A DNA stretch of 64,000 nucleotides from an uncultured Bdellovibrionales bacterium. Lineage in GTDB: Bacteria > Patescibacteriota > Minisyncoccia > Moranbacterales > UBA1568. The translations under genes were made by a program, and so were the position numbers. The stretch is taken from positions 176-64,175 of the forward strand of contig CAZCNN010000003.1 of assembly GCA_964500505.1 (NCBI GenBank), read 5' to 3'. Below, one piece after another: positions 6,185 through 60,800 of the stretch. The notes beneath the pieces are model-generated. The model was given only the letters and a program-made list of their open reading frames with translations, did no database searches and was not told where the DNA came from. Numbering within the stretch: position 1 is the first letter of the stretch; each line of letters begins with the position of its first letter.

Positions 6185-6308
6185 TTTCAGCTTTTTTAAA
6201 AAAAGTGGACCCTGTTAGAAAACTGTCAAAACCGCCTCCTAGTAATTTTCGGCTGTCAGTACCTGAGATATTCTCATATATCAAGTATCGTTGGCAGACT
6301 TCTAACGG

Positions 6309-6710
6309 GGTGGAGTTGATGGGAATTGCACCCATGTCCAGAGAAGTTTTTCCAAAATAGTCTACAAGCGTAGTCAACCTTGTGTACGGGCAGGAGGTAG
6401 AAGGGAGACAAAATCCTCAAGCGAGTTCTTCTTTTGCAATACGTTCGGAGGGTAAAAGAAAAAGAAATTCCCTGGTCACGTCTCGATAATATGACACCAG
6501 TGGTTCCTTACCGAGAATCAGGATACTGATGGCGTCGCCAGTAATTAGGCGAGCGCAAGACTGTAAGAAGGGGCAAAAGCTTGCGCGATTGCATTCTTGG
6601 TCTTTGTGATGAAGTTTGCATTTATCATCGTGAGAACGAGATTTACGACCGTGTTCTCAAGGTCGGCTTGCGTATTTTGAAAGTACAACCTGTCGAGTCT
6701 AAACAACCCC
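6309..6710 (-). ncRNA. ssrA: tmRNA (SsrA), one-piece; about 402 nt
   Basis: On the minus strand the 5' end GGGGUUGUUUAGACUCGACAGG matches the tmRNA 5' consensus (compare B. subtilis GGGGACGUUACGGAUUCGACAGGG). The 3' end carries a T-arm-like hairpin AUGGG-UGCAAUU-CCCAU, then CAACUCC-A-CC, which pairs with the 5' GGGGUUG and gives the diagnostic G3:U70 wobble. An internal tag frame GCA AAC ... CUU GCG CUC GCC UAA encodes ...SYSLALA*. The gene lies downstream of smpB. Confidence 0.7.
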
Positions 6711-36261: not shown

Positions 36262-36395
36262 AATTTTTGAAATTTTCAGGGTTTGACCCCGCACCTTTCT
36301 TTGGGAAAATACGCTCTATTTCGAACTTGAGCCAATAGGCGACTGCGTCTTGTGGCGTGACTTGAACAGAGACTTCCTTGGAAAAAGTGCGGGGT

Positions 36396-36424
36396 TTGAC
36401 CTTTCGGAATTTCACTGATACAAT
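36396..36424 (+). promoter_or_regulatory. sigma-70-type promoter of the ATP synthase operon (-35 TTGACC, 17-nt spacer, -10 TACAAT)
   Basis: TTGACC at 36396-36401 and TACAAT at 36419-36424 with exact 17-nt spacing, about 35 nt upstream of the atpB start. It is followed by a GGCGC-tgtaaa-GCGCC-TTTTTT hairpin in the 5' UTR (36427-36449). Confidence 0.45.
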
Positions 36425-38907: not shown

Positions 38908-38975
38908 ATTAGAATCTATAATTTGGAATGTTGGTTTCAAAATTCCACATTCGACATTCTAATCCGAACATCTTA
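38908..38975. repeat. imperfect inverted pair of heptamer arrays (TAGAAT / ACATTC type) in atpH-atpA spacer
   Basis: attagaatctataatttggaatgttgg ... ccacattcgacattctaatcc. The arms are reverse-complementary. Confidence 0.7.
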
Positions 38976-40585: not shown

Positions 40586-41512
40586 ATGGCAAGTGCACGA
40601 GACATCAGGAGACGCATCAAAGGCGTGAAAGGCACGGGTAAGATTACCCGGGCCATGGAGATGATTTCGGCTGTCAAAATGCGCAAAGCTGTAGGGAACG
40701 TCCTTGCTATTCGTCCATATGCACAGAGTGCTATCGAACTCCTCCGTCAGCTCGACCGAGCCGTCGGCGAAGAGCGTCATCCGCTCGTGACTGAGCGTCC
40801 GGTGAAGAAGGAACTCTACGTAGTAGTGACGAGCAATCGTGGACTCTGTGGGGCGTTTAATGCTCAGATCGTGAAGCGCCTGCGTCAGGTACTGAAAGAA
40901 GATGAAGGTCGGGAGCGCGCGTTTATCACCATCGGCAAGAAGGGCGAGAACGCGGTCCGGCGGATGAATGGTGAAATCGTCGCTTCATTCCCAGATGTTC
41001 TCACGTCACCGACCGCCGAGGGGATGCGCGGAGTAGCACACGTCATTATGGATGAATTCACCTCACTTCGAGTGGATCGTGTCGTGGTTATCTACACTGA
41101 CTTTATCTCGATGCTTTCCCAGGAGGTCAAAGTGCGAGCGCTCCTCCCGGTGGCCCTCAGTGATACCAAGAAGGCCATGCATGAAATCACGTCGCTCACG
41201 AGCGACGGTGACGAGATGAGACAGAACAATAGTAGGGGTACCACTGAAACATCGGAGTATACGATAGAACCATCCCCACAGAGCGTACTCGAGCAGATGA
41301 TCCCGCGCTTGATTGAGATGGAGCTCTACCATGCTATTCTCGAGTCCAATGCCTCGCAGGAGTCGGCTCGCATGATGGCGATGCGGAACGCGACAGATGC
41401 CGCCAAGGATATGGTGTCTGACCTGACGCTTGCCTACAACCAGCTCCGCCAGGGCAAGATTACTCAGGAAATTGCTGAGCTCTCAGCTGGTATGGCAGCA
41501 GTGCAAAAGTAG
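40586..41512 (+). CDS. atpG: F0F1 ATP synthase subunit gamma
   Basis: MASARDIRRRIKGVKGT... is a gamma N-terminus. 308 aa with an insertion. Confidence 0.9.
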   Translation: MASARDIRRRIKGVKGTGKITRAMEMISAVKMRKAVGNVLAIRPYAQSAIELLRQLDRAVGEERHPLVTERPVKKELYVVVTSNRGLCGAFNAQIVKRLRQVLKEDEGRERAFITIGKKGENAVRRMNGEIVASFPDVLTSPTAEGMRGVAHVIMDEFTSLRVDRVVVIYTDFISMLSQEVKVRALLPVALSDTKKAMHEITSLTSDGDEMRQNNSRGTTETSEYTIEPSPQSVLEQMIPRLIEMELYHAILESNASQESARMMAMRNATDAAKDMVSDLTLAYNQLRQGKITQEIAELSAGMAAVQK

Positions 41513-41582
41513 AATGTAGAATTTTGAATTTAGAATTTTGGAACCCAAAACCGACATTCTGCATTCTAAATTCTATATTCTT
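41510..41582. repeat. inverted pair of heptamer arrays (TAGAATT x4 / NCATTCT x4) in atpG-atpD spacer
   Basis: tagaatgtagaattttgaatttagaattttgg-aacccaaaacc-gacattctgcattctaaattctatattctt. Confidence 0.8.
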
Positions 41583-41612
41583 CAAGGAAAGAGGAAGGGG
41601 ATATGTAATTGA

Positions 41613-43045: not shown

Positions 43046-43492
43046 ATGATTAAGCTCAAAGTCGTAACTCCCGAAAAGATGGTGGTGGAGCAGGACGTCT
43101 ATCAGGCGACTCTGCCGGTTCTCCATGGCGAGGTGACGCTTCTCCCGAACCATGTGCCGTATATCGGCGCTCTTTCGGCTGGGGAGATTATGCTCCGATC
43201 CGAACCAAATGGGCCCGAGACGAGTCTCGCGACCTCGGGTGGCTTTGTGGAGTTTCATGACAATGTCCTTTCGATTCTCGCTGATACGGCCGAACGCGCC
43301 GAAGATATTGACGTCACACGTGCCGAAGAGGCTCGCAAACGTGCCGAGGACTTGAAGAAAGAACGAGTCACTATGGACGATGAAGAGTATGCTCGGACCG
43401 CGGCTATGATCGAGAAAGAGATGGCTCGGGTCAAGGTCGCTCGTCGTCACCAGGCCCGTCGTGGACTGAGTCCCGAGAGTTTGGGGCAGTAG
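43046..43492 (+). CDS. atpC: F0F1 ATP synthase subunit epsilon
   Basis: Beta-sandwich plus C-terminal helices. It is the last gene of the operon. Confidence 0.85.
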   Translation: MIKLKVVTPEKMVVEQDVYQATLPVLHGEVTLLPNHVPYIGALSAGEIMLRSEPNGPETSLATSGGFVEFHDNVLSILADTAERAEDIDVTRAEEARKRAEDLKKERVTMDDEEYARTAAMIEKEMARVKVARRHQARRGLSPESLGQ

Positions 43493-43564
43493 AGGTATTT
43501 TGTGAGAATATTCAAAACTCATCTTTCCACGGTCGTGAGAGGATGGGTTTTTTTGTTGAGATTG

Positions 43565-43647
43565 GTGCGGGGTTGACCCCGTTAGAGAACGCTGCGCCCT
43601 TGGCGCGACTTCAGTCGCTCCTAGCGACTTTTCTCTAACGGGGTTGA
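43565..43647 (+). repeat. structured repeat element copy 1 (about 80 nt): 13-bp outer inverted repeat CCCCGTTAGAGAA/TTCTCTAACGGGG enclosing two small hairpins; preceded by GCGGGGTTGACCCC motif
   Basis: Read directly. A second copy lies at 53878..53968 with compensatory changes in the first inner hairpin. Confidence 0.8.
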
Positions 43648-43697
43648 AAAAATCGCTTGTTTAAAGTACAGTGGGGAGGTAACGACCAGAAAATACT

Positions 43698-46133
43698 ATG
43701 AAAAATGGCTACGAACCGAAGAAAATCGAAGGGAAATGGCAGAAGTACTGGGAGAAAAATGGTACCTATCGCCAGTACAAGCGGTCCAAGAAACAGTATG
43801 TTTTGGATATGTTTCCGTATCCTTCCGGGGCGGGACTCCATGTGGGTCATCCCAAGGGCTATATTGCGTCGGATGTCTATGCCCGTTTCAAACAACTGGA
43901 AGGGTATGGTGTGCTCCATCCAATGGGCTGGGACGCCTTTGGGCTCCCTGCCGAGCAGTATGCCATCAAGAACAAAGTGCATCCGAGTGTCGCGGTCAAG
44001 AAAAACATCGCGACGTTCAAAAAACAATTGGAAAAAATTGGCTTTACCTATGATTGGGATCGGGAAATCAATACGACCGATCCAGAGTACTACCGTTGGA
44101 CGCAGTGGATATTCCTCCAGATGTACCACAAGGGCCTGGCCTATCAATCTTTTGATCCGATTAACTGGTGTCCATCATGTCAGACGGGACTGGCCAACGA
44201 AGACTTGGAGCAGGGTCACTGTGAGCGCTGTGGCACTCTCGTAGAAAAGCGTCCGATGCGCCAGTGGGTGCTCAAGATTACAGCCTATGCTGACAAGATG
44301 CTCCGAGATCTCTCGAAACTGGATTGGCCGGAGGGGATCAAAGAAGCCCAGCGGAACTGGATTGGCCGTTCCGAGGGGATGGTGTTCACTTCGCCCGTGA
44401 AAGATACCAAGCTCAAGATAGAAACGTTCAGTGCACATTTTGAGGCCTTTGCGGCTGACACCTTTGTGGTGATTGCTCCTGATCATCCACTCCTCCCGAA
44501 ACTGCTCGACGGTATCGCTGAAAAGGAAGTAATTCTGAAGCAGTGTGAGGAGATGGTGCGCAAGCGAGAAGCGGCGGGGTACGAGACAGAAAAGGAATCT
44601 GAGGGCATTTTTACTGGCCGTTACACGATTGACCCGGTGGGCAATGGCGAGCTCCCGATATGGGTCGCGAGCTATGCGTTGGCGGACTATGGTACCGGTA
44701 TCGTCAAATGTTCGGCCCATGACGAGCGCGATTTTGCTTTTGCTAAGAAATACGGTATTCGATTGAAGCCGGTTTTGTTTCCGGAGGATCAGGCTAAACG
44801 AGAGCAAGTGAAAAATCTCGAATACTGCTACACCGATATGGAGGCGGGTATCCTCATGGAGCCTGCTGCTTTCCAGGGGAAAAAATCAGGAGAAAGTCGT
44901 AAGGATATCATAGCCTATCTGGTCAAGAACAAACTGGCACGCAAGAAAACCACCTATAAGATGCGGGATTGGGTATTCTCTCGTCAGCGGTATTGGGGTG
45001 AGCCCATCCCGATTATTCATTGTGAAGCGTGTGGCGTGGTACCAGTGCCTGAGAAAGATTTGCCAGTGATGCTCCCCAAAGTGAAAGCCTACGAGCCCGC
45101 TGGTACTGGTGAGTCACCACTCGCTACAATCGCTTCATGGGTCAATGTGAAGTGTCCCAAGTGCAAGGGTCCGGCCAAAAGAGAAACCAACACCATGCCT
45201 CAGTGGGCTGGGTCGTCTTGGTACTATCTGCGATTTATTGATACCGAGAACCAGAAGGCACTCGTCGATAAGAAGAAAGAAGAGAAGATGATGCCAGTGG
45301 ATGTCTATGTCGGTGGCGATCATGCAACACGGCATCTTATCTATGCCCGGTTTTGGCATAAATTTCTCTATGACCAGGGGAGAGTGAGTACACCCGAGCC
45401 ATTTAAGCGTCTGGAATTCCTTGGTCTTATCCTAGCATCGGACGGTCGTAAGATGTCCAAGCGCTGGGGGAATGTCATCAATCCGAACGACGTGATTGAT
45501 CAGTTTGGGGCCGATGCCTTCCGTCTGTACGAGATGTTCATGGGACCGTTTACTCAGCACATTGCCTGGAATACAGATGGTGTAGTGGGGACACGGCGGT
45601 TTTTGGAGAAAGTATGGCGATTGCAGGAGAAAGTAGTAGGGAGTAAGCAGAAGGGTGTAAGCGAAGACAAAAATATCGAGAGCCTGCTCCATCAGACCAT
45701 CAAGAAAGTGGGGGAGGATATTGAAGAGTTCAAGTTTAATACTGCCATCAGTAGTCTGATGATACTAGTGAATGCTCTTGAGAAAGAGACCGAGATTCAA
45801 AAAGCTAGATTCGAAACTCTCCTCATTCTCCTCAGTCCCTTTGCTCCACACATGACCGAAGAACTGTGGACCGGGATGGGAGAGAAGAAGTCTATCTTTC
45901 TTGCAGAGTGGCCCAAGTATGACAAGAAAAAAATCGTGGCCGAGTCAGTCAATGTCGCGGTCCAGGTGAATGGCAAAGTACGGGCCGTCCTCGCTATCGA
46001 GAGTGGTATGAATGAAGACGAAGTGAAGGCCATGGCTCTCGCTGATGCCAATGTCCAAATCTATCTCGCTGGTAAATCAGTCCGCAAGATTATCTACGTC
46101 CCTGGTAAAATCGTGAGTATTGTGGTCGGATAA
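43698..46133 (+). CDS. leuS: leucine--tRNA ligase
   Basis: HVGH and KMSKR motifs. 811 aa with a CP1 editing domain. Confidence 0.95.
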   Translation: MKNGYEPKKIEGKWQKYWEKNGTYRQYKRSKKQYVLDMFPYPSGAGLHVGHPKGYIASDVYARFKQLEGYGVLHPMGWDAFGLPAEQYAIKNKVHPSVAVKKNIATFKKQLEKIGFTYDWDREINTTDPEYYRWTQWIFLQMYHKGLAYQSFDPINWCPSCQTGLANEDLEQGHCERCGTLVEKRPMRQWVLKITAYADKMLRDLSKLDWPEGIKEAQRNWIGRSEGMVFTSPVKDTKLKIETFSAHFEAFAADTFVVIAPDHPLLPKLLDGIAEKEVILKQCEEMVRKREAAGYETEKESEGIFTGRYTIDPVGNGELPIWVASYALADYGTGIVKCSAHDERDFAFAKKYGIRLKPVLFPEDQAKREQVKNLEYCYTDMEAGILMEPAAFQGKKSGESRKDIIAYLVKNKLARKKTTYKMRDWVFSRQRYWGEPIPIIHCEACGVVPVPEKDLPVMLPKVKAYEPAGTGESPLATIASWVNVKCPKCKGPAKRETNTMPQWAGSSWYYLRFIDTENQKALVDKKKEEKMMPVDVYVGGDHATRHLIYARFWHKFLYDQGRVSTPEPFKRLEFLGLILASDGRKMSKRWGNVINPNDVIDQFGADAFRLYEMFMGPFTQHIAWNTDGVVGTRRFLEKVWRLQEKVVGSKQKGVSEDKNIESLLHQTIKKVGEDIEEFKFNTAISSLMILVNALEKETEIQKARFETLLILLSPFAPHMTEELWTGMGEKKSIFLAEWPKYDKKKIVAESVNVAVQVNGKVRAVLAIESGMNEDEVKAMALADANVQIYLAGKSVRKIIYVPGKIVSIVVG

Positions 46134-46215
46134 GCCCCAGCTTATAGCTGATAGGGAATAGCTCATAGAAAAATTCAGGGTACCCATTCGACAGGCTTAG
46201 AGTTGTCTGCTGACA

Positions 46216-46254
46216 AGAAAGAAGCCCCGGCGCGGTTGTGCGCAAGGGCGGGGT
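46216..46254 (-). terminator. intrinsic terminator for minus-strand small membrane protein gene
   Basis: Minus-strand ccccgccc...gcgccgggg stem followed by cttctttctt. Confidence 0.5.
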
Positions 46255-46263
46255 TGTGGGGGG

Positions 46264-46446
46264 TCAGAAGGCCCGGAAGTAGAGCTTGGCTCCGCTGGTC
46301 AGGAACAGGCCACCCAAGATGAGCGCCAAGGGCGACCACACAGGTACTGAAGCGAATGCTCCAGCGAGAATGAGGAACACGCCAATGCCGGCGACGATGG
46401 CGCTAGACGCCAAGTACCCTGCTATCTGTGGGTCGATACGAGTCAT
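46264..46446 (-). CDS. small membrane protein (60 aa, 2 TM)
   Basis: aggaggg RBS before the ATG. MTRIDPQIAGYLASSAIVAGIGVFLILAGAFASVPVWSPLALILGGLFLTSGAKLYFRAF. Confidence 0.55.
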   Translation of the reverse strand: MTRIDPQIAGYLASSAIVAGIGVFLILAGAFASVPVWSPLALILGGLFLTSGAKLYFRAF

Positions 46447-46631
46447 GATGACCCTCCTGTTGTGTGCCAGAATCTGGCACGGGGTGAATTTTTAAGGCAC
46501 TGGTAACGACCCATTATAGCAGAAAAATGATAAAAAGTCAAGTGTCGATGTTCAGCAAGGAAAAGTGCTAGAATACGGGTAAGAATGGATTTAACCTAAA
46601 AGCTATAAGCTAACTCCTAATTCCTACCCCT

Positions 46632-48461
46632 ATGTGTGGCATCGTTGGCTATATCGGCAAGCGTCAGGCGAAGGATCTCTTGATCGAGGGATTGCATCGG
46701 TTGGAGTATCGTGGCTACGACAGTGCTGGCGTGGCGCTCGTTGGTGGTAACAAACTGAAACGAGTGCGTGCCTTGGGGAAAGTAGGAGAGCTCGAAAAGA
46801 AAACAGAGGGGATGACACTCGATGCGACGCTCGGTATTGCCCATACGCGTTGGGCCACACATGGCAAGCCGTCTGAGAAGAACGCTCACCCGCATGCTGA
46901 CTGCGCCGGGGCGATTTCACTCGTCCACAATGGGATCATCGAAAACTATACTGAACTGAAAGATGAACTGACCAAGAAGGGTCACCGTTTCTCATCCGAG
47001 ACCGATACCGAGGTAGTAGCCCATCTCATCGAAGAACATACGAAGAAGAGTCAGGATATGGAAGAAGCTTTTGCGCGCACGCTCAAGGATCTCCGGGGGA
47101 CGTACGGCATCGCCATGGTCGCCGTGGCCGAACCAGAACGGCTCTATGTGGCCCGGATGGGGAGTCCACTCCTTATCGGCGTCGGCAAGGACGAATATTT
47201 CGTGGCGTCTGATGTCTCAGCTATCCTCGCTCATACCAAAAAGGTGGTGTATCTCGAAGACGGTGAGCGCGCCGTCATCACCCGTGACGGCTATGTCGTC
47301 CGGTCGGGCCAGGTAGTGCAGAAGAAGACTGTCTCGGATATCGAATGGTCCGAGAAAGAGGCTAAGCGGGGTGGCTTTCCGCATTTTATGCTCAAGGAAA
47401 TATTTGATCAGCCGGAGAGCTTTGCTGATGCGCTCCGCGGGCGACTCCTCCCAGATGAGGGGTCAGTTCGGCTCGGTGGACTGCGCGCCGTAGCAAAGCG
47501 TTTGGAGGGTATACGGCGTATTGTGATCGTGTCATGTGGTACGTCGTACCACGCGGGCCTGGTCGGTGAGTATATGCTCGAGGAATACGCAGGGATCCCG
47601 GTCGAAGTCGAGTACGCTTCGGAGTTTCGCTACCGCAAACCACTCCTCGATAAATACACCGCGGTGCTCGCGCTCTCGCAGTCAGGAGAAACCGCCGATA
47701 CCCTGGCCGCTATCCGTGAGGCCAAGAACAAAGGGGCGCTTGCCCTCGGCATCGTGAACGTCGTCGGCTCGACTATCGCTCGGGAGACTGACGCTGGTGT
47801 CTACAATCATGCAGGGCCAGAGGTGTCGGTGGCATCGACCAAGGCCTTTACCTCGCAACTCGCCGTGCTCTCGCTCCTCGCCCTCTATCTCGGTCGCAAG
47901 CGTGGCATGTCACTCGTCACGGGTCAGCGGATTGCGCGGGAGCTCCTCAAATTGCCACGCCTCATGGAACGGATATTTGAACAGTCCGGTACGATCAAGA
48001 AGCTGGCCAAAAAGTATGCCAATCGCAAGAATTATCTCTACCTGGGACGGAAGTACAATTTCCCGATTGCTTTTGAAGGAGCCCTCAAGGTAAAAGAAAT
48101 CGCCTATGTGTCAGCCCAAGGGTATCCGACCGGTGAGATGAAGCATGGTCCGATCGCCCTCATTGATCGAGAAGCACTCGCGCTCTTTATCATGCCGGTT
48201 GATAGCGTCTACGAGAAAAGCGTGAGTGGTCTCGAGGAGATCAAAGCGCGTGGAGGAACCGTGCTCGCTATCACGACGGAGGGCAACACGGCGCTCGAGA
48301 AGAAGGCTGATGCGGTAGTGTATATTCCGAAGACCCTCGAGATGCTTACCCCTATCCTCTCTGTTATCCCGCTTCAGCTCTTTGCCTACCACATGAGTGT
48401 CGCACTCGGCTACGAGGTGGATCGGCCGCGAAATCTGGCAAAGAGCGTGACGGTGGAATGA
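46632..48461 (+). CDS. glmS: glutamine--fructose-6-phosphate aminotransferase
   Basis: N-terminal MCGIVGY (Ntn Cys), two SIS domains, C-terminal ...TVE. Confidence 0.95.
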   Translation: MCGIVGYIGKRQAKDLLIEGLHRLEYRGYDSAGVALVGGNKLKRVRALGKVGELEKKTEGMTLDATLGIAHTRWATHGKPSEKNAHPHADCAGAISLVHNGIIENYTELKDELTKKGHRFSSETDTEVVAHLIEEHTKKSQDMEEAFARTLKDLRGTYGIAMVAVAEPERLYVARMGSPLLIGVGKDEYFVASDVSAILAHTKKVVYLEDGERAVITRDGYVVRSGQVVQKKTVSDIEWSEKEAKRGGFPHFMLKEIFDQPESFADALRGRLLPDEGSVRLGGLRAVAKRLEGIRRIVIVSCGTSYHAGLVGEYMLEEYAGIPVEVEYASEFRYRKPLLDKYTAVLALSQSGETADTLAAIREAKNKGALALGIVNVVGSTIARETDAGVYNHAGPEVSVASTKAFTSQLAVLSLLALYLGRKRGMSLVTGQRIARELLKLPRLMERIFEQSGTIKKLAKKYANRKNYLYLGRKYNFPIAFEGALKVKEIAYVSAQGYPTGEMKHGPIALIDREALALFIMPVDSVYEKSVSGLEEIKARGGTVLAITTEGNTALEKKADAVVYIPKTLEMLTPILSVIPLQLFAYHMSVALGYEVDRPRNLAKSVTVE

Positions 48462-48480
48462 AAGAGGAGAATGGGTTAGA

Positions 48481-49188
48481 ATGGGTAATAGACAGAAATT
48501 TAATGCTGTGCGTATGCTTCGTAGTACCATCCCTGACTATCTCCCGCTTGACCGGCCGCTCATCATCTTTGACCTCGAAACGACGGGATTGTCGAGTGGG
48601 GAAGACAAGATAGTCGAGCTTGCCTATGAGAAAATCATGCCGAGTGGCGAGGTTATCGCCTACTGCGAACGGATCAACCCAGGGATGCCGATGCCGGAGG
48701 ATGCCAGTCGTATCAATGGCATCTATGATAAAGACCTCGTTGATTGCCCGAGTTTTGCCAAGCTCTCGTACGAACTCTGGAACATGTTTGATGGGTCAGA
48801 TGTCGGGGGATTCAACATCACGGGGTTTGACCTGCCATTTTTGCGGGGAGAGTTCGCCAGTGTCGGCAAGAACTTTGACTATACCAAGAAGAAGGTGCTT
48901 GATGCCAAGATCCTCTATCACAAGATGACGGCCAAAAACATGTTTGCACCGCGCAATCTCTCGGCTGCCTACAAGCTCTACTTTGGTAAAGAGCATACGA
49001 CGGCCCATACTGGGGCTGGGGATGTGCGGGTCACGGTAGAAATCCTCGAGAAGCAACTGGAGCAACATCCGGAATTCCGAAATTGGGAGTACCTCGCTGA
49101 GCTCCACGGGAACAAAAAACTCCTAGAGTCCGCCAAAACCGAGCACGCCCCACTCATCACTTCTCAATCAGCCGGAACACTTTTTTAA
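48481..49188 (+). CDS. 3'-5' exonuclease, DnaQ/DEDDh family (DNA Pol III epsilon-like)
   Basis: Exo I FDLETTGL and Exo III HxxxxD (HTGAGD). Confidence 0.75.
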   Translation: MGNRQKFNAVRMLRSTIPDYLPLDRPLIIFDLETTGLSSGEDKIVELAYEKIMPSGEVIAYCERINPGMPMPEDASRINGIYDKDLVDCPSFAKLSYELWNMFDGSDVGGFNITGFDLPFLRGEFASVGKNFDYTKKKVLDAKILYHKMTAKNMFAPRNLSAAYKLYFGKEHTTAHTGAGDVRVTVEILEKQLEQHPEFRNWEYLAELHGNKKLLESAKTEHAPLITSQSAGTLF

Positions 49189-49192
49189 ATCT

Positions 49193-49687
49193 ATGGAACA
49201 ATTGATTATTTTTGGTGCCGAATATCTCTACCTGGCAGTAGTCATCTTGGCTCTTTTCTATCTCCTTATCGTGCCGAAGAAGCAGTCGTCGGAGGTGATT
49301 GTGGCGGCACTCATCGCACTCCCACTCACGTATCTTGTCGCCAAGGGATTGAGCGCGCTCTACTATGATCCGCGACCGTTTGTGGTCGGGCAGTTTGTAC
49401 CACTTATCCCACACGCACCAGACAATGGCTTCCCATCAGATCACACCCTCTTTGTCTCAGCGATCGCAGCGGTAATTTTTGCTTTTGAGCGGCGGCTCGG
49501 CACAGCACTCTTTGTCATTGCCTTCTTGGTGGGGTGGTCTCGGGTCGGGGCTGGCGTCCATCACCTGACGGATATCTTGGGGAGTATGGTCATTGCGAGC
49601 GTGGTGACGTACATTGTCGTCCGTCTGGTACTTTCTCGAGTGTGGCGTCATATGCCACGCGCTCTCAATCATTTTCTCACGCACTAA
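49193..49687 (+). CDS. PAP2-family membrane phosphatase
   Basis: PSDH, SRV and GVHHxxD motifs. 164 aa, polytopic. Confidence 0.7.
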   Translation: MEQLIIFGAEYLYLAVVILALFYLLIVPKKQSSEVIVAALIALPLTYLVAKGLSALYYDPRPFVVGQFVPLIPHAPDNGFPSDHTLFVSAIAAVIFAFERRLGTALFVIAFLVGWSRVGAGVHHLTDILGSMVIASVVTYIVVRLVLSRVWRHMPRALNHFLTH

Positions 49688-49688
49688 C

Positions 49689-50522
49689 ATGGCGCTGCTC
49701 TCAGGAAAATTGATAGCCGAGCGCATTCTTGCTGATACCAAGGAGCGGATAGCTTCATCTCATGTGACTCCGGGTCTGGCGGTCATCCTCGTTGGTGACT
49801 ATATCGAATCACAGAAGTACGTGGCGCTCAAGGAAGAACGGGCCAAAGAAGTAGGAATCCTCTTTGAAAAGCAGGTATTCCCCACGACGGTAAGTCACGG
49901 TGAACTCATTTCGGCCATCTCAGCCTTCAATGATCGACCGGATATCCATGGTATCATCGTCCAGCTCCCGCTCCCCGCTGGGATGCCGACGGATGAAATT
50001 ATCGCTCAGATTGATCCAAAGAAGGACACGGATGGTTTTCATGAGGAAACACTCAAGCGCTTTCTCGGGGGTGATGCCACGGCCTGCCCAGTTTTCCCGC
50101 GAGCGATCGTCGAGCTCATCCGTGAGACAGAGATCGCTTTTCATGGCGAAAAGGCGATTGCGGTTGTGAACTCCAATATCATCGGGCGAGTGCTCGCTTT
50201 TGCACTGTCACTTGAAGGTCTCAAGAGTAAGTACATTCTCCGCGCTGAGGGGAAAGAGGCTATTACTCATGAAATCAAGGAGGCACGAGTGGTGGTGACG
50301 GCCTGTGGTATCCCGGATCTCATCACGGCCGAGATGCTCAGTCCTGACGCTATCGTCATAGATGGAGGCAATGTCCATGTTGATGGCAAGGTGCAGGGCG
50401 ATGTGGCGCGAGCGACAGTAGAACCGAAGATAGCGTATCTCTCACCGGTCCCTGGTGGAGTCGGTCCAGTCACTGTCGCGACCCTCCTCGCTCGTGTCAC
50501 CGATGCCGCGTTGACAAAGTGA
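49689..50522 (+). CDS. folD: bifunctional 5,10-methylene-THF dehydrogenase / cyclohydrolase
   Basis: FolD N- and C-domains (VILVGDYIESQKYV...PVPGGVGPVTVA). Start at MALLSGK. Confidence 0.85.
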   Translation: MALLSGKLIAERILADTKERIASSHVTPGLAVILVGDYIESQKYVALKEERAKEVGILFEKQVFPTTVSHGELISAISAFNDRPDIHGIIVQLPLPAGMPTDEIIAQIDPKKDTDGFHEETLKRFLGGDATACPVFPRAIVELIRETEIAFHGEKAIAVVNSNIIGRVLAFALSLEGLKSKYILRAEGKEAITHEIKEARVVVTACGIPDLITAEMLSPDAIVIDGGNVHVDGKVQGDVARATVEPKIAYLSPVPGGVGPVTVATLLARVTDAALTK

Positions 50523-50569
50523 GGGTGATTCCCTATGCTTCTTTTGTGTTCTTTTGGGATGAGAAATAG

Positions 50570-50652
50570 GCCGAGGTGGTGGAATGGTAGACACACGGGA
50601 CTCAAAATCCCGCGATAGCAATATCATGAGGGTTCAAGTCCCTCCCTCGGCA
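50570..50652 (+). tRNA. tRNA-Leu (anticodon CAA), long variable arm, CCA not encoded
   Basis: Acceptor GCCGAGG/CCTCGGC, anticodon stem CGGGA/TCCCG with loop CTCAAAA, a long variable arm, T-arm GAGGG-TTCAAGT-CCCTC, discriminator A. Confidence 0.85.
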
Positions 50653-50743
50653 CTGGGAATTAACGGAAAACAGGCATTTCGAAGCCTGTTTTTTGTATGA
50701 AAAATTGATAATCAGGGGTCAATGGACTATAATAGAAGCAATG

Positions 50744-50818
50744 GAATTGGGAATATCGAATGGAGAATTTCGAATGAAAAATTCTACCCTATATTCAACA
50801 TTCTATATTCAACATTCT
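50744..50818. repeat. inverted heptamer arrays incl. direct 14-mer TATATTCAACATTC x2, ending 10 nt before parA start
   Basis: gaattgggaatatcgaatggagaatttcgaatg ... attctaccctatattcaacattctatattcaacattc. Confidence 0.75.
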
Positions 50819-50827
50819 TGCAAACAA

Positions 50828-51619
50828 ATGGCCAAGGTGATCGGATTCGTCAATCAGAAAGGTGGCGTGGGTAAAACCACGTCGACTATTAACGTCGCCA
50901 CGTATCTTGCCGAAGCTGGAAAAAAAGTACTCCTGGTGGACCTCGACCCGCAGGGCAATGCTTCATCGGGCCTCGGGATTGATGCGAGGCGACTTGAGAA
51001 GAATCTCTACCACGCCATGATCCTCGGCCTCCCGACGCAAGAGCTCATCCTCCGGACCGAGACGGAAAGACTTCATATCGTACCGGCTGCTCAGGATTTG
51101 GCCGGGGCTGAGATTGAGATGGTGCATATCGAGAATCGTGAATTTCGTCTGCATAATGCTCTTCGCCAGGTTCGTCCCTACTACGACTATATCCTGATCG
51201 ATAGTCCACCGTCACTTGGTCTCCTCACTGTGAATGGGCTCGTCGCATCGGACGAAGTCATTATCCCTGTCCAGACCGAATACTATGCGCTTGAGGGACT
51301 TTCTCAGCTCCTGGGGACCATCGAGCTCGTCAGGGAGCATCTCCAGCCCAATCTGAAAATTGGCGGGGCGCTCCTCACGCTTTTTGATCGGCGCAACCGT
51401 TTGGCGCGCCAGGTGGTGTCCGAAGTCCGCTCGCATTTTCCCGGACCCGTATTTGAAAACGTGGTGCCACGCTCCGTCCGACTCGCTGAGGCGCCGTCGT
51501 TTGGTAAGTCCATCCTCGATTTTGATGCCTTTTCGAAAGGTGCTCGGGCCTACAAGGGGGTAGTGAAGGAGATCCTCGCTCGTGAGGAAGAGGAGAAGAA
51601 AAAACCGAAAGTTTTGTAA
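50828..51619 (+). CDS. parA: chromosome partitioning ATPase ParA/Soj
   Basis: Deviant Walker A KGGVGKTT. Start is an internal Met of track ORF 50693..51619. Confidence 0.9.
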   Translation: MAKVIGFVNQKGGVGKTTSTINVATYLAEAGKKVLLVDLDPQGNASSGLGIDARRLEKNLYHAMILGLPTQELILRTETERLHIVPAAQDLAGAEIEMVHIENREFRLHNALRQVRPYYDYILIDSPPSLGLLTVNGLVASDEVIIPVQTEYYALEGLSQLLGTIELVREHLQPNLKIGGALLTLFDRRNRLARQVVSEVRSHFPGPVFENVVPRSVRLAEAPSFGKSILDFDAFSKGARAYKGVVKEILAREEEEKKKPKVL

Positions 51620-51630
51620 TTTTTATACTT

Positions 51631-52584
51631 ATGGCATCACAACAGTACGGGCTCGGTCGGGGATTGGCATCGCTCATTCCACCCAAAAAAACAGGGACGA
51701 CTCCAAATGGAGCAGGAACTTCACCGTTTGTCATCAATCCCATTTCGCAGGGAGGTCAAACTCACGAGGCTCCTGTAGCGACTGAAGCGCCGATACCGAC
51801 CAGTACGACTCCCTCGGGACTCACTGAGATCCCGGTCGGGAGCATTGTGCCCAATCCGCACCAGCCCCGCCTTCATTTTGATGAAGTGAAACTCCAGGAA
51901 TTGGCTGATTCGATCAAAGAGCATGGCATCCTCCAGCCGATTGTAGTGAGTAAAAACGGTGAGCAGTATGAGATTATCGCTGGTGAGCGGCGGTTTCAGG
52001 CGGCCAAGCGGATTGGCCTCGCCACTGTACCTGTAGTCATCCGTGATGTCACGGAGCAACAAAAACTCGAGCTCGCCATCATCGAAAACGTTCAGCGTCA
52101 CAACTTGAATCCTATCGAAGAAGCCAAAGCGTACCTCCGTCTCGTCGATGAATTTAGCCTGTCTCAGGAGGGCGTGGCCGAGAAAATGGGCAAGAGTCGC
52201 AGTGTGGTAGCGAATACTCTCCGTCTCCTCCAGCTCCCGATCGAGATCCAGCGGGCCGTCGCTGAGGGCAAGATCAGTGAAGGACATGCCAAAGCGCTCC
52301 TCGCTATCGAAAATCCCGAGAAGCAACGCGCGGTTTTTGATCTCATTATCAAAGAGGAGCTCACCGTCCGGGAAACGGAGCAGAAAGTACGCAGTATCAG
52401 TGTCAAACCCTATGTACGAAGTGCAGTCTCACTCAATCCTGAGATTCTCGAGCGGACAGAGCATCTGACCCAGGTGCTCGGGACGAAAGTCAAAATCGCT
52501 CCCTCAGGTAAGGGCGGCAAGGTTATCATCGAGTACTATGCGCCAGAGGATCTCGATGGACTTCTTCGGAGGCTAGAAGATTAA
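51631..52584 (+). CDS. parB: chromosome partitioning protein ParB/Spo0J
   Basis: GLGRGLASLIP box and the ParB HTH. It follows parA. Confidence 0.9.
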   Translation: MASQQYGLGRGLASLIPPKKTGTTPNGAGTSPFVINPISQGGQTHEAPVATEAPIPTSTTPSGLTEIPVGSIVPNPHQPRLHFDEVKLQELADSIKEHGILQPIVVSKNGEQYEIIAGERRFQAAKRIGLATVPVVIRDVTEQQKLELAIIENVQRHNLNPIEEAKAYLRLVDEFSLSQEGVAEKMGKSRSVVANTLRLLQLPIEIQRAVAEGKISEGHAKALLAIENPEKQRAVFDLIIKEELTVRETEQKVRSISVKPYVRSAVSLNPEILERTEHLTQVLGTKVKIAPSGKGGKVIIEYYAPEDLDGLLRRLED

Positions 52585-52614
52585 TATTTATGACAGATAC
52601 TTTCTCTTTTTTAT

Positions 52615-52644
52615 CAAAAAATCACTGAGACGAGTGATTTTTTG
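52615..52644. terminator. bidirectional intrinsic terminator between convergent parB (+) and manC-like (-)
   Basis: aaaaaa-tcactgagacgagtga-tttttt. Confidence 0.75.
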
Positions 52645-52655
52645 ATACACAGTGT

Positions 52656-53768
52656 TTAGAGGTAGGATTCTTCTTTGTTTTCTTTCAATTGCTCAATCAA
52701 TTTCTTGATGTCGCCAGAGACTTGGTCACGTCGGGCGACAAGGAGAGCATCATCGGTATCGATGATGACAAGGTCTTCGACTCCGATCGTCGCTATGAGG
52801 CGATGTTCACTCTGAATGAGCAAATTTTTGCTTCCGAGGTCGATGTGTTTGCCGTGGATGACCGAATGAGTACCAGATTTCTCTGCGAGAAATTCGTAGA
52901 GGGTGCCCCAGCTCCCGACATCACTCCATTTGAGGGGAGAGGGGATGACCAGTCGGTGCTCACGATCAAGTTTCTCGACGATCAGGGGTTCGATTGGCTG
53001 ACTTTCTGCTTGGGCATAGATGGTGGTGAGAGTGGCCTCATCGAGGGTACCGAGAGCGATAGACTCGGTGATTTCGGCCATCACGGCGTGAAGTGTTGGC
53101 GCATACGTCGCAGTCCAGGTAGCAAAGGTGGCAGCGGAAAAGATGAAGTAACCAGCGTTCCAGAGGTAGTCCCAGGAGGCAAGGTATTGTTCGGCGGTTG
53201 TTCGATCAGGTTTTTCTTTGAACGCATCGACCTCAAAAATTCGCTTCTCTGCGATAGTTCCGAACTCCTGACCCATCTTGATATACCCGAGGCCCGTATC
53301 GGGCTTGGTGGGGTTAATTCCTATCGTTACGAGCTTGTCAGGATGAGCATCTATGGTCGCTAAAGCCGCGGAAATAGTAGCTCGAAATTCGTCGGGATTG
53401 TCGATGGCGTGGTCGGAGGCGATGGTAGCAATCACGGCCTCCGGATCGAGGATGCGGAGGGTGGTCGCAACGAGCGCAATAGCAGGGGCAGTATTCCGGG
53501 CTTCGGGCTCCACAATGATACATTCTTCCTTTATTTCAGGGATCTTTTCGAGTACCAAGGAGCGATAACTCTCGGTCGTGGAGACAAAAATATGCCCCTC
53601 TGGGACAAGGGATTTGACCCGGTCATAGGTCTCCTCAATCATAGTTTTTTCGGAGACAAACGACTGAAATTGTTTGGGTCGCGACTTGCGTGACAGGGGC
53701 CAGAGACGGGTGCCGGAACCGCCGGCCATGATGACGATGTAGTGGTGGTCTGAACGAGCTTCGTTCAT
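52656..53768 (-). CDS. mannose-1-phosphate guanylyltransferase (GDP-mannose pyrophosphorylase)
   Basis: N-terminal nucleotidyltransferase motif IVIMAGGSGTRLWPLSR. 370 aa. Confidence 0.8.
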   Translation of the reverse strand: MNEARSDHHYIVIMAGGSGTRLWPLSRKSRPKQFQSFVSEKTMIEETYDRVKSLVPEGHIFVSTTESYRSLVLEKIPEIKEECIIVEPEARNTAPAIALVATTLRILDPEAVIATIASDHAIDNPDEFRATISAALATIDAHPDKLVTIGINPTKPDTGLGYIKMGQEFGTIAEKRIFEVDAFKEKPDRTTAEQYLASWDYLWNAGYFIFSAATFATWTATYAPTLHAVMAEITESIALGTLDEATLTTIYAQAESQPIEPLIVEKLDREHRLVIPSPLKWSDVGSWGTLYEFLAEKSGTHSVIHGKHIDLGSKNLLIQSEHRLIATIGVEDLVIIDTDDALLVARRDQVSGDIKKLIEQLKENKEESYL

Positions 53769-53877
53769 AGAATTCTTGAGTCAAAGTTAAATTTTAGTAT
53801 AGCAAAAGAAAATCATTTCGACAATTTTTTTATCTCCGTTAGAACATATACTCTAGCGGAGTAAGTAACTTTTTTGC

Positions 53878-53968
53878 GAGGGTTTTGACGCGGTGGACCC
53901 CGTTAGAGAACGCTGTGCCTTCGGCACGACTTCAGTCGCTGGGAGCGACTTTTCTCTAACAGGGTGGA
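53878..53968 (+). repeat. structured repeat element copy 2 (same family as 43565..43647)
   Basis: accccgttagagaacgctgtgccttcggcacgacttcagtcgctgggagcgacttttctctaacaggg: same architecture, with covarying base pairs. Confidence 0.8.
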
Positions 53969-54078
53969 TAACTCGGATTGCTGAGTTTCTTTATAGAGTA
54001 TTTCGTGGTAAAATAAAACTGTGCTGAAAGAGAAACAAAAGACCTCTTTTGAGGCCCTATCAAGACTCAAATTGCTTT

Positions 54079-57800: not shown

Positions 57801-60800
57801 CAAGCGACGACCGCCGGGACTGATGCTCAACTCCTCGTCGCCAATGGTAGTGGTGTCCCTGTCTTTGTCTCAATGAGTGGCGATATCACTATTACCAACG
57901 CAGGTGTGACGACGATTGGTGCCAATACGGTGGCTCTCACGACGGATACGACGGGGAACTATGTGGCTTCGGTCGGCAATGGTAATGGTATTACCGGTGG
58001 CGCTGCTGGGTCAGAGGGCGCAACTCTTACCCTAGGTCTTGATCTCCTCGACAGTGCTGACGGCACAGGCGGTACTTCTTCAAATTCAGGTCTCGAGTTC
58101 CAGGGGGCTGGCTCAAATGAACTCGCTCTGCTTCAGGGTTGTGCTAACAATGATGTGCTCGCGTGGGTAGATGCCTCCAATACCTGGGCCTGTACCAGCG
58201 TCGGGGGTGTGGGAGCTGGTGACATCACCGCTATCGGTGATGTGACGAGCGGCGCTGCTTTCGATGGGACGCAGGGGACGCAACTTATATTCAATGATGT
58301 TGATGGCGACGGCACACTCACGATAGCGAACCTCTCAGCTATCCGCACGTGGACCCTCCCTGACACAACAGGGACGCTGATTACCACGGGGGACACTGGC
58401 ACGGTGACGGGGACAATGATTGCTGATAACACTATTGAAGAAGTTGATTTTGAAGCCACGAATAGTCCAACCAATGGCTATATATTGTCATATGACAATA
58501 CCACGGGAGGCTTTACCTGGATTTCCAATACAGGCGGATCTGGGTCGTCCAAGTTTACTGACTCGGGGACAATTACCTATCTCACTGACACGACTGACGA
58601 CCTCGCTATTGGTGGCTCCACCTCGAATGCCTCCAAGTTCTTCTTTGATGTGAACACGGGTAACCAGATTATCTTTGAGGGCACTGGGGCTGATGATGCC
58701 AATGAGACAACGCTGGTGATTACCAACCCGACGACTGATAAAACGATTACTTTTGCAGATGCTTCTGGAACCGTTATCCTCTCTGGCCATACCTTTTCGA
58801 GTGATGTGACGGGGACACTTGGGTCCGGTGGGTCCACAGCTCTGACCATAGCATCTGATAGTGTAGCGCTTGGGACCGATACTACCGGGAACTATGTCTC
58901 CTCCGCTACCTCAAACGGTGGCCTCACCCTCACTGGCACCGAAGGAGCCTCTCTCGGTATCCTCCTCCCATCCGCTACTAATGGTCTCTCTGCCACGACC
59001 TCCTCTGGCTCAGGTCTTGAACTGACCTCAAGTGGCCTCTCACTCCTCCAGGGTTGTGCTGACAATGAAGTCCTCTCATGGGATGAAGCGGCTGACGTCT
59101 GGAAGTGTAACAGTGTGGGTGGTGTCGGTGCCGGTGATATCACCGCGGTAGGTAACGTCACGAGTGGTGCCGCCTTTGATGGTACCGCTGGTACTGAGCT
59201 GTACTTTAATGATGTGGATGGTGATGGTCTCCTCACGATTGCTAATCTCTCAGCCGCTCGGACGTATACATTGCCTGACGCTTCTGGTACCGTCGCGACG
59301 ATTAACGGCGGCCAGACGTTTACCAGTGCTACATGGAATGCGACGACTATCGCGGTCGCGTATGGTGGTACCGGTGCTACCACTCTCACCAGTAACGGTG
59401 TCCTCTATGGCAATGGTACGAGTGCCATCCAAGCGACGACCGCCGGGACTGATGCTCAACTCCTCGTCGCCAATGGTAGTGGTGTCCCTGTCTTTGTCTC
59501 AATGAGTGGCGATATCACTATTACCAACGCAGGTGTGACGACGATTGGTGCCAATACGGTGGCTCTCACGACGGATACGACGGGGAACTATGTGGCGAGT
59601 ATCACTGCAGGGAGTGGTGTCTCCGGGACAGTGGCAAGTGAAGGTGCTACGCCGACACTCGATGTGGATCTCCTCGACTCGGCTGATGGAACCGGTGGTA
59701 CCTCGAGTAACTCTGGTCTTGAATTTCAGGGGTCAGGAAGTGATGAACTGACTTTGCTTCAGGGATGTTCAAACAATCAGCTTCTTCTCTGGAATGACAG
59801 TACCAATGTCTGGTACTGTGGTTCTGTTTCTGGTGCGGGCGGTATCGATGGTGCTGGGGCGACTGGTCAGGTGGCCTACTTTACCGATGCCGATACTCTT
59901 TCATCCGAAGCAGAGCTCTCCGTCTCCCGTGGTGGTACCGGTATCGGCTCCTACACCATCGGTGATCTCCTCTATGCCTCAGGGAGTGGTACTCTCTCAG
60001 CACTCGCTGATGTGGCAACAGGTAACGTCCTCATCTCAGGAGGCGTCGGTATCGCTCCATCATGGGGTAAGGTCAACCTCACTACCGCAGTCTCAGGAAC
60101 GCTCCCAGTCGGAAACGGTGGTACGGGAGCCACTTCGCTCAATGATCTCATTACCCTCACGACTCACACCACCGGTAACTACGTCCAGTCCATCACCAAT
60201 GGTTCTGGTATCTCAGGAGGCAATGGTGGCAGTGAAGGAGCTGCTCTCATTCTCGCGCTTGGCGCACTCTCCGCTGACTGGAACCAAACCGGTGCGTTTG
60301 ATATCTCTCTTAACAATGCCTCCTCAGAACTCAAGATTCTCGAATCAGCCGGAGCCACCTTCTTCGGTATCTTTGATGTGGCAGACCTCTCCAGTGCTGA
60401 CAAGACGTATACGTTTCCGAATGTTTCGGGCACAGTAGCTACGATTGATGGTGGTCAGACCTTTACTAGTGCTACGTGGAATGCCTCCACGCTCACGGTC
60501 GCCTATGGCGGTACGGGTGCCACCACTCTCACCCCGAATGGTGTCCTCTACGGTAATGGCACGGGTGCGGTGCAGGCGACGAGCGCTGGTACCAATGGCC
60601 AGCTTCTCCTCGGTGTCTCGTCGAGCGCCCCAGTGTTCGCGACGATGTCCGGTGACGCTACCATCAATAATTCTGGAACAGTGACGATTGCCAGTAACGC
60701 TGTTGCCCTGACTACCGATACGACCGGGAACTATGTCTCTTCCGCTACGAGTAACGGCGGTCTCACCCTCACTGGTACCGAAGGTGCCTCTCTCGGCATC

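Follow-up and report, generated by a model that had tools for sequence, protein, structure and literature searches.

The stretch of DNA analyzed here (hereafter the window) comprises 64,000 nucleotides of contig CAZCNN010000003.1 from an uncultured bacterium that GTDB places in the Patescibacteriota, and the named relatives of its LeuRS protein belong to the Moranbacteria/Moraniibacteriota. Two short structured repeats lie in the window, one between atpC (43046-43492) and leuS (43698-46133) and the other between a divergent nucleotidyl-transferase gene on the minus strand (52656-53768) and an open reading frame (ORF) of 247 amino acids. An earlier note on this DNA had described the pair as intergenic and in the same orientation, which we confirm, and had proposed that they could be either small RNAs or miniature elements. 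The latter reading is strongly supported by our results, whereas a discrete three-way-junction small RNA is not. We hold it highly probable that both repeats are non-autonomous copies of a miniature inverted-repeat transposable element (MITE), because inverted repeats and 4-bp duplications are joined by presence or absence in close relatives and by a dispersal that extends into coding sequences. We see no evidence that either copy serves its host, and both are ordinary intergenic insertions. The interest lies in the family that they revealed rather than in the two copies, which represent an intergenic Patescibacteria subfamily with two conserved hairpins and a length that is not a multiple of three.

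The two copies are 85% identical in a wider alignment, and each of their conserved blocks has exactly two occurrences in the window, compared to 0.04 and 0.00 expected from shuffled sequences. Each copy ends in inverted CCCCGTTAGAGAA...TTCTCTAACGGGG, which enclose the two hairpins (Table 1). The shared 13-bp outer inverted repeat proposed earlier is perfect in copy 1, where the arms extend to 14 nt and are 100% complementary (ACCCCGTTAGAGAA / TTCTCTAACGGGGT), but the right arm of copy 2 (TTCTCTAACAGGG) carries a single change that leaves a C.A mismatch on the plus strand and a G.U pair on the minus strand. The compensatory pair in hairpin 1 (GCGCC/GGCGC vs. GTGCC/GGCAC) and the identical stem with a CCT or GGG loop in hairpin 2 are both present as described. 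RNA fold prediction gave a three-way junction for copy 1 (-38.0 kcal/mol, z -7.3) as well as for copy 2 (-30.3 kcal/mol, z -4.3). If translated, both copies run into a stop codon.

Table 1. Positions of the two repeats, their parts, and related elements in the window
Feature	Positions	Strand	Remarks
Copy 1	43577-43643	+	67 bp
Copy 1 left target-site duplication TTGA	43573-43576	+	same TTGA 3' of element at 43644-43647
Copy 1 left terminal inverted repeat CCCCGTTAGAGAA	43577-43589	+	100% complementary to 43631-43643
Copy 1 interior	43590-43630	+	type found in Patescibacteria; common to 40/119 elements
Copy 1 hairpin 1 GCGCC-CTT-GGCGC	43594-43606	+	
Copy 1 hairpin 2 AGTCGCT-CCT-AGCGACT	43613-43629	+	
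Copy 1 right terminal inverted repeat TTCTCTAACGGGG	43631-43643	+	
Copy 1 right target-site duplication TTGA	43644-43647	+	overlaps promoter-like -35 hexamer TTGAAA 5' of leuS
Promoter-like site TTGAAA-17 nt-TACAGT	43644-43672		upstream of leuS
Copy 2	53898-53964	+	67 bp
Copy 2 left target-site duplication TGGA	53894-53897	+	repeated at 53965-53968; relative L117 has single GTGGAT there
Copy 2 inverted repeats	53898-53910 and 53952-53964	+	one mismatch
Copy 2 hairpin 1 GTGCC-TTC-GGCAC	within 53898-53964	+	
Copy 2 hairpin 2 AGTCGCT-GGG-AGCGACT	53934-53950	+	
Copy 2 right target-site duplication TGGA	53965-53968	+	
Older second-family remnant: TTGA, GATTG, GTGCGGGG	43556-43572	+	GTGCGGGG at 43565-43572; intact at same site in relative L118
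Second-family element, ends CCCCGCACCTTT / AAAAAGTGCGGGG	36287-36394	+	36282-36399 with duplications; TTTGA direct repeats
Related 100-bp element, ends CCCTGTTAGAAAA / ACTTCTAACGGG	6210-6309	+	6205-6314 with duplications; duplication GTGGA
Degenerate 28-bp mini-palindrome CTCCGTTAGA-acatatac-TCTAGCGGAG	53834-53861	.	family-like ends; absent from L117

The earlier note had suggested searching for further copies, and these proved to be widespread. By scanning one genome per species with a pattern of the two outer arms (CCGTTAGAGAA, 35-60 free bases, TTCTCTAACNGG), we matched at least 116 genome loci where about 2 were estimated by chance; the 118-119 elements analyzed below come from the matches listed. 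According to record labels, the carriers span several phyla, including Patescibacteria (many classes), Omnitrophota, Elusimicrobia, Nitrospirota, Nitrospinota, Planctomycetota, Aminicenantes, and others. The base adjoining the arm, which the pattern left free, was invariant in 118 of 118 elements, and the terminal base pair of the arm (C-G in 79%, T-A in 18%) was complementary in 96%. The ends read (C/T)CCCG throughout the family. Interiors, by contrast, were mostly unrelated between members. The two-hairpin interior of the window copies was confined almost entirely to elements labeled Patescibacteria, a second type with internal partial arm copies (20 of 119) came mostly from Omnitrophota, Planctomycetota, and Elusimicrobia, and the remaining interiors were singletons. 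Element length ranged from 26 to ~150 bp outside the window, with no transposase gene inside, and tandem arrays were also seen (L078). One element in a Moranbacteria genome is 95.7% identical to that of the window, with flanks that do not align. A covariance model built from 36 two-hairpin copies recovered only the two known copies in the window (copy 2 at 80.7 bits) plus one weak match, the mini-palindrome at 53834-53861 (16.9 bits, E 0.03). No copies were found in 2.9 million viral contigs or in a plasmid collection.

The flanks of these elements carry target-site duplications. The four bases beside the arms were the same on both sides in 103, 96, 90, and 94 of 118 elements, and the preferred target reads G|TNNA|C, with a duplication consensus of T-N-N-A that is sometimes 5 bp long. 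The central dinucleotide was a direct repeat in 85 of the 118 elements and a reverse complement in only 6. Since non-consensus duplications (CACA, TGAG, CAAG, and CAAA) were likewise direct repeats, these are true duplications rather than an extended palindrome. Among the 85 direct dinucleotides, TT/AA (45) and TC/GA (17) dominated because the duplicated TTTA or TTCA equals a Phe codon plus the first base of a Thr codon, and palindromic ones, including that of TTAA, were almost missing (1 of 85). Direct identity also extended to two positions outside the duplication in 62 and 58 of 118 elements, and the outer base tended to equal the terminal base of the element. The near-palindromic target resembles the joined ends of the element itself, GGGG-TNNA-CCCC, and this resemblance would explain why elements land beside older copies, in -35-like TTGAC boxes, and, most of all, on GGN-TTY-ACC, which encodes Gly-Phe-Thr at the prepilin cleavage site.

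The copy 1 site illustrates such a landing. Immediately upstream lies the remnant of an element of a second family, and copy 1 looks like an insertion into the right-hand duplication of this decayed element, judging from the sequence. The earlier note had reported a GCGGGGTTGACCCC motif ahead of both repeats; it precedes copy 1 only, and arises there because the right end of the remnant is followed by TTGA and then by the start of copy 1. The same motif does occur twice near 36279 and 36390, upstream of the atp operon as reported, but these two occurrences are the ends of one intact second-family element (36287-36394). That element sits in the -35 box of the predicted atp operon promoter, a promoter-like TTGACC-17 nt-TACAAT at 36396-36424 whose TTGACC was rebuilt by the right-hand duplication.

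To compare these sites among close relatives, we obtained contigs through their LeuRS proteins, which share 97% (L117), 89% (L118), 82% (L119), 81% (L120), and 78% (L121) identity with that of the window. The insertions were polymorphic. The window itself carries first-family elements (the family of the two repeats) at the copy 1 and copy 2 sites and a second-family element upstream of atp. L117 has an altered first-family element at the copy 1 site and a second-family element upstream of atp, while its copy 2 site is empty, with the target present once (...atgtatGTGGATaactcgg). In its copy 1, hairpin 1 has become ACGCA/GGCAC with three unpaired positions, and the hairpin 2 loop reads AGG, the reverse complement of the CCT in the window copy. 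In L118, where the copy 2 site falls outside the covered region, the copy 1 site holds an intact second-family element, TTGA|CCCCGCACC...GGCGCGGGG|TTGA, and the atp-upstream site holds an element with first-family-like ends (TCCCGTTAGAAGT) that adjoins the atpB start codon and has its TGGA duplication within ATGGAA. The families of these two L118 elements (2812-2928 and 9861-9943) are thus swapped relative to the two intergenic sites of the window, which points either to the same targets having been hit repeatedly or to recombination having replaced the interiors. No element was found at any site covered by the loci of L119, L120, and L121: the copy 1 site has none in all three, the atp-upstream site has none in L120 and L121, and the copy 2 site has none in L121, has no matching region in L119, and lies outside the covered region in L120. 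The empty atp-upstream site of L121 reads aggTTTGAcgg...TATACT.

Many family members sit inside genes, chiefly in the leaders of type IV prepilins. When ORFs of the genome loci were clustered, the most recurrent cluster near elements had a type IV pilin-like N-terminus (11 loci). For eight of the 119 elements the insertion site coincides exactly with the Gly-Phe-Thr codons in the prepilin cleavage motif, and all eight are in frame and stop-free, giving a read-through product of the form leader-GFTPLEK-(17-19 amino acids)-SLTG|FTLIELL (for example, MGNRKRGFTPLEK...SLTG|FTLIELL). When metagenomes were scanned independently for prepilin codons joined to the right arm, 100 junctions were obtained at 93 loci, or 87 after deduplication. 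At 67 of these 87 the native leader reads through in the T-P-L-E frame, compared to a chance estimate of ~10-20% for an in-frame, stop-free junction. A further 6 are open but shifted and have a conserved internal ATG, 10 have a stop followed by an ATG, and 4 have a stop without an ATG, most of them cut by the contig end. Other in-frame copies were found in G6PD, MurG, and CofD-family genes and in further large ORFs.

This in-frame persistence follows from the ends, which are stop-free in two of three frames on each strand (TPLEK/SLTG and PVRE/FSNG), with a TAG in the third. The codons of the left arm, which the metagenome search left unconstrained, were nearly uniform among 67 junctions (ACC 58, CCG 64, TTA 64, GAG 64), whereas the adjoining host Gly codon varied (GGG 21, GGT 8, GGC 8, GGA 6). 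Since synonymous positions are conserved in the element and variable in the host, the ends are conserved as DNA and not as peptide. The element end ACC-CCG-TTA-GAG is one base from ACC-CTG-TTA-GAG (Thr-Leu-Leu-Glu). The six shifted junctions belong to a 107-nt subfamily (L139, L149, L166, L169, L195, and others) that is out of frame with the native pilin leader and carries, 21 codons ahead of the cleavage Gly, an in-frame ATG that is conserved (M-R-V/I-P-F...SLTG|FT); judging from this arrangement, it may supply a replacement leader along with its start codon. Minimal units of 26 bp, consisting of two abutted arms (GFTPLENSLTGFT), were also present.

Together, these observations allow a broader proposal, which we put forward tentatively and at somewhat less than even confidence. 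The family would be a cross-phylum one specialized in a safe site at the protein level: its ends would mimic prepilin codons, and it would insert at Gly-Phe-Thr, where the insertion would be translated as extra leader and presumably cut off by prepilin peptidase, leaving the mature pilin unchanged. This logic would be intein-like, operating through a signal-processing step of the host. On this view, horizontal transfer among Patescibacteria, Omnitrophota, Elusimicrobia, and others would have spread the enzyme that mobilizes the family, a transposase either new or highly divergent.

As for how the elements move, the unit comprises a 13-14-bp terminal inverted repeat ((A)CCCCGTTAGAGAA), a lineage-variable interior, the inverse repeat, and a target duplication of 4 bp (sometimes 5), and would be moved by cut-and-paste with a transposase supplied in trans. 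An IS1380/piggyBac-type enzyme is, by analogy, the candidate for the mobilizer that we find likeliest, though at clearly less than even confidence, because 4-bp T..A duplications and CCC termini are combined in that superfamily. The piggyBac elements duplicate TTAA, with variants such as TCAA and TAAA, and have CCC termini (TTAA|CCCTT...), and IS1380 serves there as the prokaryotic outgroup (PMC10813416). The left inverted repeat of ISEcp1, a member of the IS1380 family, is CCTAGATTCTACGT.

Several observations weigh against this interpretation as a MITE family moved in trans. No full-length autonomous element with these ends was found in the window, at the 116 or more genome loci, or at the 93 metagenome loci, and the segments between distant half-sites held housekeeping genes only and no transposase. 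The 35 window proteins scanned with Pfam were likewise housekeeping, with no transposase or recombinase among them, and the 110 nearest neighbor genes fell into 111 Pfam families of which none was dominant and no transposase appeared in the 25 commonest. A phmmer search with the ISEcp1 transposase, itself insensitive to distant relatives, returned nothing at E up to 10 among 2421 + 1083 ORFs in ~1.4 Mb of flanks. The near-absence of TTAA from the duplications fits piggyBac poorly. The 26-bp units are too short for ordinary synapsis of the ends and would have to derive from later internal deletion, and the different families at the same two sites in close relatives could reflect interior replacement rather than independent transposition. 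At the empty copy 2 site of L117, the match is clean on the right only, while the left differs by a complex change. Lastly, covarying interior hairpins suggest some constraint beyond the ends.

This last point bears on the alternative that the two-hairpin subfamily functions as a structured RNA (a small RNA, or an element acting in cis such as a terminator or stabilizer) that rides in a mobile shell or was domesticated from one. We consider this quite unlikely, even though the predicted folds are very stable (the z scores above) and helices stay paired through many double changes. In a MAFFT alignment of the 36 two-hairpin copies, which come from diverse Patescibacteria, 99.6% of cells were paired in the outer stem, 90.5% in hairpin 2 (with one pair broken in 14 of 36), 81% in a GAC-UUCA-GUC hairpin that is part of an alternative fold, and 67% in hairpin 1, whose varying length MAFFT misaligned. 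Pairing fell to ~50% when partners were slid as a control, and individual folding placed a hairpin at the hairpin 1 position in many members with very different stem sequences. Pairing reached 96.4%, with 14 double changes at one position, between the 5' junction CGCY and the 3' half of hairpin 2, a helix that excludes hairpin 2. The earlier claim that covariation reveals selection on the fold therefore stands in part, in that internal helices do covary, but two mutually exclusive pairings are equally supported. Additional copies that break the pairing, which that note had named as counterevidence, do exist in part as well: the L117 copy 1, with its flipped hairpin 2 loop, breaks hairpin 1 at three pairs. 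There is a real tendency to keep hairpins and no single defined structure, and templated repair in quasi-palindromes can yield paired changes without selection, which we count against a functional RNA. Also in favor of an RNA are the strand preference of the covariance model (84 bits for the plus strand vs. 38) and, in both copies, a terminator-like score for hairpin 2 followed by UUUUCUCU. Yet the commonest context of the subfamily, between divergent genes, leaves a terminator no role, and the family showed no orientation bias relative to neighboring genes (both from rough ORF-based counts). A consensus promoter scan found no promoter-like site upstream of either copy; copy 1 lies between an apparent atpC terminator (a stem and T-run identified by eye, which the terminator scan did not list) and the leuS promoter, and copy 2 lies between divergent genes. 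The Rfam check called for earlier gave no match for the element in the window or at 18 loci at the gathering score, with only sub-threshold noise up to E 10, and most family members have entirely different interiors. Two specific RNAs were rejected: a hammerhead ribozyme, since the junction (CGCU / GACUUC / U or its complements) misfits the CUGANGA / GAA / H core on both strands when compared by eye to the consensus, and a T-box or leader RNA for leuS, given no Rfam match and a position upstream of the predicted leuS promoter. Separately, one locus (L105) has a DUF3800-IX RNA at 216-286 (Rfam RF02968, 60.5 bits), ~760 nt from its element and with no sequence relation to it.

Movement might also proceed by site-specific recombination, through a tyrosine or serine recombinase or an integron-like single-strand hairpin, with the flanking repeat as the crossover core. 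The targets mimic the joined ends, the base outside the repeat tends to match the terminal base, and elements insert beside older copies (as at the copy 1 site) and in tandem arrays (L078). Almost no central dinucleotide is palindromic, and serine recombinases need a non-palindromic core for polarity; one copy in the window also sits at the 3' end of a transfer-messenger RNA (tmRNA) gene, a classic integrase target. We judge this route unlikely, though still a live alternative. Targets such as TTTA, TTCA, TTGA, TGGA, CACA, and TGAG, among others, are too varied for a classical attachment site, no recombinase gene was associated with distant half-sites or nearest neighbors, a double-stranded circle of 26-150 bp is physically improbable, and the order of the arms is opposite to that of integron attC. 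Far less probable still, to the point that we give it almost no weight, is that the repeats are host regulatory sites (an operator palindrome or intrinsic terminators) at fixed positions. A perfect 14-bp palindromic pair is typical of dimeric regulators and several copies abut promoter -35 boxes, but identical arms occur across phyla beside unrelated genes and inside coding sequences, positions are not kept between relatives at 78-97% LeuRS identity, and the flanking target duplications contradict such a role.

Beyond the two repeats, the window holds two further such elements, at 6210-6309 and 36287-36394 (Table 1), and carries about one element per 16 kb in all, though the very small genomes of Patescibacteria are usually thought poor in mobile DNA. 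The insertion point of the 100-bp element at 6210-6309 coincides exactly with the 3' terminus of the tmRNA gene (6308-6710, minus strand). The duplicated TCCAC is the end of the tmRNA acceptor arm, and the gene now reads ...UCCACCCG; before insertion, the tmRNA would have ended in ...UCCAC followed by a U-run. Two AT-rich imperfect palindromes of ATTCTAAAT/AGAATTT-like units (38908-38963 and 41511-41584), in or beside the atp cluster, have 26-31-nt arms that are 81% complementary and are unrelated to the element reported here. Identical inverted-repeat pairs (TCTCAGGAGGCAATG ... CAATGCCTCCTCAGA, 88 nt apart) at 60211-60328 and 62377-62494, with ~2.2 kb between them, suggest another repeated unit or a duplicated gene segment.

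Two features of L117 lie close to the repeats. At its 9687-9990, ~320 extra bases between copy 1 and leuS form a segment that is not in the window and encodes a small GIY-YIG-like ORF (MPGSENSSKQAFHYVYVLES..., motif identified by eye) that runs into a stop. Another GIY-YIG-like ORF, also recognized by eye, is 2.4 kb from the element in L015. We rejected GIY-YIG genes as mobilizers, as they were not among the 25 commonest families of nearest-neighbor genes. At its empty copy 2 site (20500-20545, corresponding to window 53963-53971), near parAB, L117 has an inverted DnaA-box-like pair, TTATCCAC ... TGTGGATAA. A replication origin there was also rejected, with 10 DnaA boxes in the window vs. 11.1 expected and no clustering.

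The family has practical consequences for annotation: pilin leaders, as well as enzymes such as G6PD and MurG, are lengthened by 10-50 codons, and gene starts are shifted. The elements probably also break assemblies of uncultivated bacteria, and the 13-bp ends would permit masking. That several phyla have identical ends implies that the mobilizing enzyme was either exchanged horizontally in recent times or is widely shared, and the hunt for it is now a well-defined search. If confirmed, insertion at the leader cleavage site would be a novel means by which selfish DNA can reside in a gene without harming it, and this hotspot is a natural experiment on the leader length tolerated by prepilin peptidase.

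Several known systems were compared with the family, and REP/REPIN, integron attC, DNA uptake sequences, and dif/Xer sites were set aside. REP/REPIN sequences, mobilized in trans by RAYT, are alike in their inverted short conserved sequences, less conserved spacer, and long hairpin. REPs are self-palindromic, with a conserved GTAG, no target duplication, and a species-specific distribution. By contrast, the arms here are not self-palindromic, the two ends are complementary to one another, and the elements are flanked by 4-bp duplications, which excludes both REP/REPIN and IS200/IS605-type elements. Integron attC sites are also imperfect palindromes of 60-140 bp with GTTAGAG / CTCTAAC-like end boxes and a free center. 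An attC site, however, has a 5' RYYYAAC box and a 3' GTTRRRY box, the reverse of the order seen here (GTTAGAG 5', CTCTAAC 3'), and the present elements have target duplications but no cassette arrays. A likeness between the second-family end AAGTGCGGG and the Haemophilus DNA uptake sequence AAGTGCGGT is regarded as coincidence, since copies are far too sparse and are flanked by duplications. The arms of dif/Xer sites show no similarity. With piggyBac/IS1380, the family shares a 4-bp T..A duplication and CCC termini, and the ISEcp1 end CCTAGATTCT (CCTAGA) can be set beside the CCCCGTTAGA contained in the present ends. IS1380 duplications are 4-5 bp long, and piggyBac excises precisely, a property that by analogy would suit life inside coding sequences. 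The difference is that the duplication here is TNNA, with TTAA nearly absent, and the link draws on end and duplication features only.

The closest parallels are the prokaryotic MITEs, for example Correia in Neisseria, RUP in pneumococcus, and Nezha in cyanobacteria. They are alike in short length, inverted repeats, a short duplication, and no transposase gene, as well as in several dispersed copies per genome, differences between strains, and a transcript or DNA strand that forms hairpins. The features that mark a MITE, namely inverted repeats, target duplications, small size without a transposase, and presence or absence between relatives, were all found here. However, known MITE families keep within one genus or family, and a parent insertion sequence can usually be identified for them, while the present one has the same 13-14-bp ends in several phyla, interiors that are replaced wholesale, and no parent found. 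A review of MITEs makes no mention of prepilin-codon targeting (PMC10969869).

The same review describes the Rickettsia palindromic elements (RPEs), palindromic repeats inserted in frame in unrelated genes and surviving as peptide insertions (PMC10969869). The in-frame copies in G6PD, MurG, CofD-family genes, and pilins resemble them, a functional resemblance only and one that belongs to the family rather than to the window copies. RPEs occur also in RNA genes, and one element here abuts the tmRNA gene. They differ in being ~100-150 bp long, restricted to Rickettsia, and without a clear target duplication or defined target, whereas the inverted repeats here are sharply delimited, the duplication is 4 bp long, and the leader cleavage motif forms a hotspot defined by sequence. 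Literature searches by DNA string, peptide string, and keyword found no description of the family, which is apparently undescribed. It is set apart from both MITEs and RPEs by its identical ends across phyla and its hotspot at the leader-peptide cleavage site.

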